Source: Escherichia coli
GTDB taxonomy: Bacteria > Pseudomonadota > Gammaproteobacteria > Enterobacterales > Enterobacteriaceae
Assembly (NCBI RefSeq): GCF_030384885.1
Contig: NZ_CP128613.1
DNA length: 64,000 nucleotides
Direction: 5' to 3' (one strand)
Shown: one piece after another, positions 5,252 through 7,129 of the stretch
How the letters are laid out: every line of letters starts with the position of its first letter
Numbering within the stretch: the first letter of the stretch is position 1
Translations under genes and position numbers: made by a program
The notes under the pieces: model-generated
Databases searched by the model: none
The model's input: the letters and a program-made list of their open reading frames with translations, nothing else
Told to the model about the DNA's origin: nothing

Positions 5252-5308
5252 AGTTCAGTTAAGTTCTTTTGGTTTGTGCAGATTGTTAGCAAAGTGCTAT
5301 TTATTCAT

Positions 5309-5342
5309 GGCGGATGCGGCGTGAACGCCTTATCCACCCTAC
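5309..5342. repeat. REP (repetitive extragenic palindrome) element
   Basis: ggcggatgcggcgtgaacgccttatccaccctac, matching the E. coli REP consensus gccggatgcggcgtaaacgccttatccggcctac. Confidence 0.8.
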
Positions 5343-5498
5343 AAAACCGGACTAAGTTAATAGTTTACAATTCCAGTCAGTACCAGCTAAGCATAATGGA
5401 TCAGCCTCATTACATTTCTTCAGGATTTTATTCATGAGGTTATATAAAAACGATTAACACGCATTTTCCAAAAAGAGAAACTTATCTATTTTTTACGG

Positions 5499-6212
5499 CT
5501 AATGAAAAAACCGCGTATGCCTTTGCCAGACAAGCGTTATAGCTATAGCGGCAAGAATCCCAAAGAAGCCGATAAAATAGTAATAGAGTGTTAATGCACC
5601 TATAAAAGCACAACGAACCGGACTCCATAATTCTTCACTATGGCTTTTTCCTGTCAGTTCAAGGAGCTTATTTCGTCCATGCGAGATAATGCCTGACCAT
5701 AAGACAATCATTAAGCAACTTATTACCCAAACAGGCCGTTCACTCATTAATGCGGTATTTACGCTGATCACCAGGGCCAACCCTGTCAACGTCATCATAA
5801 TGATAAAACGATGAGAACCAGGATCAACATTAAATAATAAACCGGCCAGCATACTGATTAAAAACATCGCGCCCGCAGTGCTGAACACAAGGATAATGGC
5901 AGATACAGGAACTAAACTTGCAACCACAATCGCCACCAAAGAGAGTAAAAACAGATATATAACGCCTGCGATGGCGGCATTTATCTTGTTGATATATTTA
6001 CTTAAGCCATACATACAAAGTAATAATAATCCTATGACAACATACATTGGTGGTGAATCATATTTGGTTGCCGTAATTTCGAGATAATTAGCTATCCAGG
6101 CCAGTCCTGCGGTTGCCGCCAAACCCAAAGAGGTAATGAGCCATATGGCATTTAATATCCTGGCCTCGTACTGAAAATCATTAGTTATGTTTTTTGATGA
6201 GTACGATTTCAT
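5499..6212 (-). CDS. ybhM: BI-1 (Bax inhibitor-1)/YccA-family 7-TM membrane protein, 237 aa; probably YbhM
   Basis: 237 aa matches the YbhM length; C-terminal motif GALTLYYYFIGFFG is similar to the GALTLYLDFINLF motif of YbhL; AT-rich coding sequence. Confidence 0.6.
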   Translation of the reverse strand: MKSYSSKNITNDFQYEARILNAIWLITSLGLAATAGLAWIANYLEITATKYDSPPMYVVIGLLLLCMYGLSKYINKINAAIAGVIYLFLLSLVAIVVASLVPVSAIILVFSTAGAMFLISMLAGLLFNVDPGSHRFIIMMTLTGLALVISVNTALMSERPVWVISCLMIVLWSGIISHGRNKLLELTGKSHSEELWSPVRCAFIGALTLYYYFIGFFGILAAIAITLVWQRHTRFFH

Positions 6213-6280
6213 TATTTTTATATCCTTAAGTTGAAAATCAATATCTATTGCAATTAACGCAAAAAACTCATCAATTCACG

Positions 6281-7021
6281 CTACCACACTAAACCATTAA
6301 TAAAGTCAAGAACCGTTACAGCAAGTCTAAAAAGGACGCTTAGGATACTGAAATAGAGTGTTATTGCCCCTGCAACAATACAGCGAAGAACACCTGAAAA
6401 TTCAGAGTTGTCGGCAACACGGATCAAATCTTCCAGTGTTGTTGCTTCACAGGCAGCCGTAACGCCCCAGATAACGACAGTCAAAATACTCGCTAACCAT
6501 ACGGAAAAACTGCTGGTAAGAATCAGGTTAACAACAAAAGCAATACTCAAACCACAGAAGATATATAAACATAACTGTCTAACTGGTGGGATAACCCTAT
6601 TAATACAACAGCATATTAGCGCCATAGCGGCAAACATCCCTCCCGTAATTCCCATTACCCTAGCTATACTCGAAAAGGTAAAAAGTCTGGAGAAGAGAAA
6701 GCCATTAAGTAGGATTATTAGCAGATAGACCAGACATGCGCCTGATGCCTCGAGCCTTTTCAGGGCATCGTTTAACCAGAAACCAATTATTATCAGCGCA
6801 GATAAAGCGAAGACAAACGCGCCTGGAGATTCTAGTGAAGCAACCCAATGCAAGTGCTGAAATATCCAGGCACAGCCTGCCGTAGCCCATACTCCAGCAG
6901 CGGTTAACCACCAAATGAGGAACAGCATTTTGCTGAGCGAAGCGCTTTTTTGCTGTAATTGAGTAGCAGTGGATCGTCTGTTCAAATGCGTTATCTGCCC
7001 CTGAAATTGCGTAGTGGACAT
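6281..7021 (-). CDS. second BI-1/YccA-family 7-TM membrane protein paralog, 246 aa
   Basis: Polytopic; C-terminal GAITLYFSILSVLFRL motif shared with the neighbouring paralogs; AT-rich; I recall only two such genes (ybhL, ybhM) at this locus in K-12. Confidence 0.55.
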   Translation of the reverse strand: MSTTQFQGQITHLNRRSTATQLQQKSASLSKMLFLIWWLTAAGVWATAGCAWIFQHLHWVASLESPGAFVFALSALIIIGFWLNDALKRLEASGACLVYLLIILLNGFLFSRLFTFSSIARVMGITGGMFAAMALICCCINRVIPPVRQLCLYIFCGLSIAFVVNLILTSSFSVWLASILTVVIWGVTAACEATTLEDLIRVADNSEFSGVLRCIVAGAITLYFSILSVLFRLAVTVLDFINGLVW

Positions 7022-7129
7022 AGTCTGGCATTTGCGGCGATTCAGTTCTCATGTAAATGAGCGGAATAGTCTTTATAAAATCCGAAAAAAATCCCGACAC
7101 ATGGCCGGGATATTGATGGTGAAAAAGAA

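Follow-up and report, generated by a model that had tools for sequence, protein, structure and literature searches.

A diverged Bax-inhibitor-1 family gene beside ybhL in Escherichia coli, probably a member of an old and eroding AT-rich islet

Why does an E. coli chromosome carry three genes of the Bax-inhibitor-1 (BI-1) family side by side, where the reference strain K-12 carries two? The question is raised by a 64,000-nucleotide stretch of contig NZ_CP128613.1 (assembly GCF_030384885.1), referred to here as the window. In this window the open reading frame (ORF) listing places a trio of consecutive minus-strand genes between moaE (7970-8422) and ybhN, with moaABCDE upstream and a convergent ybhN at the far end. 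The trio comprises ybhL (7130-7834, 234 residues), a gene of 246 residues (6281-7021; RefSeq WP_000108394.1), which we call the middle gene, and an allele of ybhM (5499-6212, 237 residues). A sequence-only reading of this DNA, made without database searches, had proposed that all three belong to the BI-1 family and had stated that K-12 has only ybhL and ybhM here. The ORF listing and searches with the Pfam profile PF01027 bear out the first claim. The second is right as well: K-12 MG1655 does not carry the same three genes but only ybhL and ybhM, with a 204-bp spacer between them. Taken as a whole, the explanation that we favor and consider probable is that the middle gene is a diverged BI-1 gene in an old, eroding AT-rich islet, and neither a recent tandem duplicate nor a recent import.

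The 246-residue ORF is an intact gene. Its product is a diverged representative of the seven-helix inner-membrane proteins that make up the Bax-inhibitor-1 (TMBIM/UPF0005) family. Against the Bax1-I profile (PF01027), which has a gathering score of 34.1 bits, YbhL scores 212.1, the middle protein 55.5 and YbhM 67.3 bits, and the match of the middle protein spans profile positions 5-203 of 207. Every one of the 19 members of its diverged branch individually matches PF01027, and an hhalign comparison of the diverged branch with the YbhL branch gives a probability of 99.9% over 217 columns (E 5e-34). These profile comparisons leave no doubt that the diverged branch is homologous to canonical BI-1 proteins. 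RefSeq already annotates the middle gene as 'Bax inhibitor-1 family protein', and it is an accessory member of a known family. In an exhaustive HMMER comparison with 1.84 billion cluster representatives, 14 clusters only were obtained at E<1e-10. The paralogues had been described as diverged, and pairwise comparison agrees: YbhL, the middle protein and YbhM are 24-29% identical to each other, so that a recent duplication is not their origin. The nearest relatives of the middle protein are P0020 from Kluyvera georgiana (38-39%) and P0022 from Superficieibacter (37%), unlike those of YbhM, whose nearest relative is P0026 (36%).

An AlphaFold2 (AF2) model of the middle protein (predicted local distance difference test score 91.9) has seven long helices, at residues 33-56 (within 3-56), 66-86, 92-113, 116-140, 146-168, 172-203 and 209-245. 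Their boundaries correspond one to one with those of the YbhL model, and the hydropathy profile agrees. The C-terminal G-A-(L/I)-T-L-Y motif that the sequence-only reading had pointed out is common to all three proteins: it reads GALTLY in YbhL and YbhM, and GAITLY in the middle protein, where it occupies residues 218-223 in transmembrane helix (TM) 7 and where G218 and A219 are invariant or nearly so in the branch. Moreover, 116 of the 246 residues of the middle protein do not vary among its orthologues. Like YbhL and Bacillus subtilis YetJ (BsYetJ; PDB 4PGR), a pH-sensitive Ca2+ leak channel, the middle protein combines PF01027, seven TM helices and a GAxTLY motif in TM7, and it has an invariant pair of basic residues in TM2 (K88/R89) at the position of R60 in BsYetJ. 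In the PDB, neither phmmer with the middle protein nor hmmsearch with the diverged-branch profile returned a match, and YetJ was reached only by profiles that include canonical members. As to the AF2 models of the diverged branch, either the helices have been packed wrongly by AF2 or the modeled bundle is truly rearranged.

One change in the middle protein concerns two aspartates, D171 in TM6 and D195 in TM7, which form the pH sensor of BsYetJ, with the numbering offset and the roles assigned according to the 4PGR structure. YbhL, which aligns with BsYetJ, keeps both, as D185 and D218. Three independent alignments place Glu192 and Ser225 at these sites in the middle protein and Gly and Tyr in YbhM; the relatives P0020, P0022, P0023 and P0024 have Glu and a small residue. 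According to these alignments the canonical di-Asp latch is gone from the middle protein, in which an acidic-basic pair could remain. The di-Asp sensor is a mark of the pH-gated channel mechanism and not of family homology.

The middle protein can be compared with its neighbor as well as with YbhL. YbhM (b0787 in K-12) resembles it in belonging to the same diverged sub-branch, in its AT-rich gene, in its length of approximately 237 residues with seven TM helices, in the C-terminal '...RC...GA(L/I)TLY' motif, in the lost di-Asp sensor and in its relaxed constraint. The two proteins are, however, only 28% identical, their residues at the sensor sites differ, and the kin of YbhM are P0026 and a fourth paralogue of E. 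albertii rather than P0020 and P0022. Furthermore, ybhM is nearly universal in E. coli, whereas the middle gene is not.

The distribution of the middle gene shows how far the term 'lineage-specific paralogue', which the sequence-only reading had used, applies. Among 5,426 complete E. coli genomes, 749 (13.8%) carry the gene, always on the chromosome. They fall into two deep allele classes: a rare, window-like class (12 genomes at at least 95% identity) and a common one of 737 genomes, whose identity to the window is approximately 91%. The two main alleles of the protein are 88% identical. Within the common class the gene is near-clonal, being at least 99% identical in 730 genomes, including 55989, O104:H4, O121 and O103:H2, which are strains of phylogroup B1. 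E. albertii (75% amino acid identity), Escherichia sp. MOD1-EC7003, a representative of a cryptic clade, and a Logan Escherichia contig have the gene at this position too, and a scan of representative genomes yielded at least two loci with it. Thus, the window does have one BI-1 gene more than K-12, as claimed, but the gene is not lineage-specific.

A recent gain in a subset of E. coli, either horizontally or by duplication, would be in line with its composition and its patchiness. The observation that ybhL has a normal composition whereas the other two genes are AT-rich was accurate: the GC content is 47.4% for ybhL, 43.9% for the middle gene and 40.3% for ybhM, compared to 49.1% for the whole window, and the GC content at third codon positions (GC3) is 0.57, 0.42 and 0.40, respectively, compared to 0.50-0.66 for the neighboring genes. 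The near-clonality of the common allele points in the same direction, as does the spacer next to it in K-12, which is reported to be bound by H-NS (PMC3946193). Nevertheless, we regard a recent gain as distinctly unlikely. In E. albertii and the cryptic clade the gene occupies an identical position and points the same way, the paralogues share little identity, and ybhM is equally AT-rich even though it is present in nearly all E. coli. Moreover, the synonymous divergence (dS) of the middle gene between lineages, 0.19-0.31, follows that of its flanks (moaE, 0.12-0.36; ybhL, 0.14-0.29, the latter within E. coli and the cryptic clade). Finally, neither an insertion sequence (IS) nor an integrase was found at the window locus, and it lacks bracketing repeats: the sole inverted repeat around ybhM and the middle gene (18 nt, 83%), considered as a mobility signature, was rejected because it is at chance level, estimated at about one per 2 kb. 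The shared position across Escherichia, together with a dS like that of the flanks, argues for an ancestral islet that is eroding in E. coli rather than for a lineage-specific gain. On these comparisons the middle gene is most likely ancestral in Escherichia and has been lost by most E. coli.

We propose that the Escherichia ancestor had, downstream of ybhL, an old, AT-rich, fast-evolving islet to which both the middle gene and ybhM belonged. Its fullest form would have been ybhL, the middle gene, ybhM, a fourth BI-1-like gene, a DUF3969 gene and a gene of approximately 70 residues. E. albertii shows this order, followed in some cases by a SUKH-4 gene and then by ybhQ. In E. coli the islet would have eroded stepwise, such that ybhM is retained by nearly all genomes, the middle gene by approximately 14%, DUF3969 and the small ORF of 73 residues by less than 1% (31-41 complete genomes) and the fourth paralogue by two of the 5,426 (GF4-3 and 2020CK-00188), whereas ybhL is universal. 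Ancestral loss is supported by the lack of mobility genes at the window locus and by traces of decay in other genomes. In GDSC2227PM-type genomes a deletion scar joins residues 7-44 of the middle protein to residues 205-234 of YbhM; copies P0006, P0011 and P0018 are frameshifted, and truncated versions occur in E. albertii. In addition, IS insertions (IS1, IS200 or IS5) have been seen or reported at the locus in some E. coli genomes.

The survey also revealed variation in the rest of the locus. The fourth paralogue (237 residues, P0026 type; E. albertii locus L016, 5498-6211) is 35-37% identical to YbhM and has no match in the precomputed Pfam record. One E. albertii haplotype (L016, 6911-7462) carries, at the far end of the islet, a gene for a SUKH-4 protein, which belongs to an immunity-protein superfamily; another haplotype (L017) lacks it. 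Several E. coli genomes, for example VCSW7 and LH85-a (L004 and L005, 2508-2897), have ybhM alleles with an in-frame internal deletion that encode 129 residues, the N-terminal 30 being fused to the C-terminal 99. In cryptic-clade Escherichia (L006, L008) ybhN is missing from the locus, and DUF3969 and the small ORF adjoin clsB, while in E. albertii (L016/L017) the stretch from the islet to ybhQ contains none of ybhN, clsB and ybhP.

A number of results weigh against the reading of the middle gene as an ancestral and still active member of the islet. In the K-12 ybhM-ybhL spacer, blastn-short and tblastn detected the ybhL terminator, which both forms have, but no recognizable trace of the middle gene. 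K-12 thus did not arise by simple deletion, and a replacement is indicated instead. As a further caveat to a deletion history, dS between the K-12 and B1 haplotypes is 0.073 for ybhM but 0.010-0.012 for the flanking genes. Together, the missing remnant and the raised dS suggest that the two-gene and three-gene forms are old, distinct haplotypes and not the outcome of a recent simple deletion. As to activity, the ratio of nonsynonymous to synonymous divergence (dN/dS) of the middle gene is 10-20 times that of ybhL or moaE. The gene is missing from 86% of the genomes and is sometimes frameshifted, so that it may have a marginal function only. Conservation is also lacking for the ATG at 7021; in the B1 allele, codon 5 after it is a stop. 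An alternative start, a TTG at 6985 that would yield 234 residues, is the only usable one in the common B1 allele and is the one at which the NCBI prokaryotic genome annotation pipeline (PGAP) begins the gene. A consensus scan upstream of the middle gene found no sigma-70-like promoter. Finally, NF007765, the equivalog model for YccA, a BI-1 relative on which part of the function proposed below is modeled, matches neither the middle protein nor YbhM, and YbhL reaches 23 bits compared to a cutoff of 353.

Much of this could mean that the middle gene is a decaying relic, effectively non-functional and open by inertia only. Its loss from most genomes, the frameshifted and truncated copies, the unstable start codon, the undetected promoter and a dN/dS of approximately 0.4, compared to approximately 0.02 for its neighbors, would all be expected of such a gene, and the neighboring ybhM is likewise struck by IS insertions and in-frame deletions (PMC5379014). 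We consider this explanation unlikely, since dN/dS, at 0.33-0.46, is significantly below the neutral value of 1 in all six lineage pairs (binomial P 6e-5 to 1.2e-3), which argues that the gene is constrained as a coding sequence. Although the protein has diverged by 12-25%, E. coli, E. albertii and the cryptic clade have all kept a full-length ORF, and the many invariant positions include the TM motifs. For comparison, dN/dS is 0.21-0.35 in most pairs for ybhM and 0-0.03 for ybhL and moaE. These ratios indicate that the middle gene is under relaxed yet significant purifying selection.

The arrangement of the locus bears on how the gene might be expressed. A strong terminator-like hairpin with a T-run lies on the minus strand directly 3' of ybhL (7091-7111; 8-bp stem with five GC pairs, TTTTTT tail). 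It parts ybhL from the middle gene in the window and is also kept in the K-12 spacer. The AT-rich spacer between the middle gene and ybhM on the same strand (6213-6280, 68 bp, 25% GC) has no detectable terminator. A hairpin after ybhL and none before ybhM make a common transcription unit likely, and the middle gene and ybhM are thus probably co-transcribed. In K-12 the ybhL-ybhM spacer contains a constitutive sigma-70 promoter of ybhM (ACGACA-16-TATAAA), and the spacer is flagged as H-NS-bound (PMC3946193). Among the papers searched, none was about the middle gene or DUF3969, and ybhM appears only in gene lists.

What could such a protein do? Two members of the same superfamily act on membrane proteases, YccA as a substrate and inhibitor of FtsH and mitochondrial TMBIM5 as an inhibitor of the m-AAA protease AFG3L2. 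FtsH membrane substrates need a cytoplasmic N-terminal tail of about 20 residues. The middle protein has a basic tail, predicted to be cytoplasmic, of approximately 31 residues before TM1 (MSTTQFQGQITHLNRRSTATQLQQKSASLSK), or of 19 residues when counted from the TTG start, and as a sequence feature a tail of 31 residues would in principle allow FtsH to engage. We propose that the middle protein may be a dispensable inner-membrane homeostasis factor. It might mediate an altered, not canonically pH-gated, cation or proton leak. Alternatively or additionally, it might be a substrate or competitor of an FtsH-type protease that is engaged through the 31-residue basic tail, as in the case of YccA and TMBIM5; the parallel between YccA-FtsH and TMBIM5-AFG3L2 has been drawn before (PMC9379554). 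Its contribution would be conditional, hence its loss would be tolerated in most lineages. Our confidence in this role, be it altered ion leak, protease substrate or competitor or both, is low. YccA and TMBIM5 are very distant from the middle protein in sequence, and the YccA model does not match it.

The slot after ybhL is variable across the Enterobacteriaceae. Diverged BI-1-like proteins that are 33-39% identical to the middle protein occur in Kluyvera georgiana (P0020, WP_065355570), Salmonella enterica (P0024), Superficieibacter (P0022) and Pseudocitrobacter (P0025). In Kluyvera and Salmonella the gene directly follows ybhL, as the middle gene does. In most of these counterparts the site equivalent to D171 is occupied by Glu and that equivalent to D195 by a small residue. 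They represent different sub-lineages, however. In Kluyvera the order is ybhL, P0020, ybhQ; in Salmonella the P0024-type gene is not in tandem with ybhM but heads a cassette with genes for two unannotated membrane proteins of 202 and 186 residues, which is followed by ybhN.

The Salmonella enterica cassette (L018/L019, 4001-5908) encodes the BI-1-like protein of approximately 235 residues and two hydrophobic proteins of approximately 203 and 185 residues without a Pfam family. A homologous cassette, with 35-42% identity between the Salmonella and E. coli versions, is found in some E. coli (L011, 1087-2986), beside an IS3-family transposase near ybeT/ybeU/djlB.

Such neighborhoods raise the possibility that the BI-1-like genes, together with DUF3969, the ~70-residue ORF, SUKH-4 and the ~203- and ~185-residue membrane partners, form an immunity- or defense-like array against membrane-targeting toxins or phage. 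Paralogues that stand in tandem and differ deeply from each other (as many as four in E. albertii), a strong presence/absence polymorphism and the elevated dN/dS could be read in this way, as could the SUKH-4 gene and the occurrence of a homologous three-gene cassette in the Salmonella slot and beside an IS in E. coli. We nevertheless judge such an array to be very improbable. The flanks are moaE/ybhL and ybhN, with no adjacent toxin gene, SUKH-4 was seen in a single haplotype, and dN/dS is below 1, with no sign of diversifying selection. Neither the three BI-1 genes nor DUF3969 nor the 73-residue ORF had a match in PADLOC, PHROGs likewise gave none, and the proteins of the Salmonella and E. 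coli cassettes matched neither resource. We know of no immunity protein of the BI-1 family. A broader and similarly improbable proposal is that the diverged BI-1-like proteins, namely the middle protein, YbhM, the fourth paralogue of E. albertii and the relatives in Kluyvera, in Salmonella and beside an IS, might constitute a distinct, fast-evolving, sensor-less class. Their genes lie in variable cassettes with those of small partners (DUF3969, the ~70-residue ORF, SUKH-4 and the ~203- and ~185-residue membrane proteins), both at the ybhL slot and on an IS-flanked island. They could then be a hitherto unrecognized kind of membrane-embedded protective or immunity module, or paralogue-specific FtsH regulators, and not housekeeping leak channels. 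Going by the AF2 models, proteins of this class may have a re-packed helix bundle.

Returning to the ancestral islet, which we prefer, the locus shows that K-12 is an incomplete reference here, and approximately one complete E. coli genome in seven has a gene for an additional membrane protein of the BI-1 family. In practice this matters little, and it is ordinary pangenome variation. Apart from YccA (FtsH) and BsYetJ (Ca2+ leak), however, bacterial BI-1/TMBIM proteins are poorly understood. Here a set of tandem paralogues, of which one is canonical and as many as three are sensor-less, comes with natural knock-outs across strains, and such a set could show what the scaffold does without its pH latch. 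The locus is also a good illustration of how an ancestral AT-rich islet erodes step by step in one species.

The window itself matches the chromosome of E. coli 2013C-4282 (NZ_CP027579.1; from human stool, USA) at 100% identity, and PGAP annotates the same three coding sequences there. The neighborhood is approximately 95-96% identical to K-12, indicating that the source is a generally divergent E. coli lineage. The YbhL protein is 100% identical in the window, K-12 and Ec1119, whereas YbhM alleles are 89-92% identical (window and K-12, 89% at the amino acid level). At the distal edge of the variable islet lies ybhN (4295-5251, plus strand), which according to the ORF listing and annotation encodes an LPG_synthase_TM-family membrane protein. 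The interval given for the BI-1 genes in the sequence-only reading began at 5252 and thus takes in, besides the genes, the 247-bp ybhN-ybhM spacer (5252-5498), whose K-12 counterpart has 35 bp. The extra ~212 bp consist of a dispersed repeat resembling a repetitive extragenic palindrome (approximately 5276-5371), present in tens of copies per E. coli genome, and of unique sequence; the full 212-bp insert is found in 34 complete genomes only. In some relatives (E600003), DUF3969 and the 73-residue gene stand in this spacer instead. The idea that the insert is a remnant of DUF3969 and the 73-residue gene was ruled out, as no similarity was found.

Two further features lie beyond the trio. In an Rfam scan of 4000-12500 the sole match was the molybdenum cofactor riboswitch RF01055 (103 bits; 10661-10805, minus strand), which is upstream of moaA as expected for the operon. 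Between yvcK and uvrB, the window contains a segment of approximately 4.8 kb that is not in K-12 (11980-16748). It encodes a 765-residue pentapeptide-repeat protein (12155-14452, minus strand) and a 550-residue hypothetical protein (14936-16588, plus strand), and the adjoining 3' end of yvcK is 82-88% identical to K-12.

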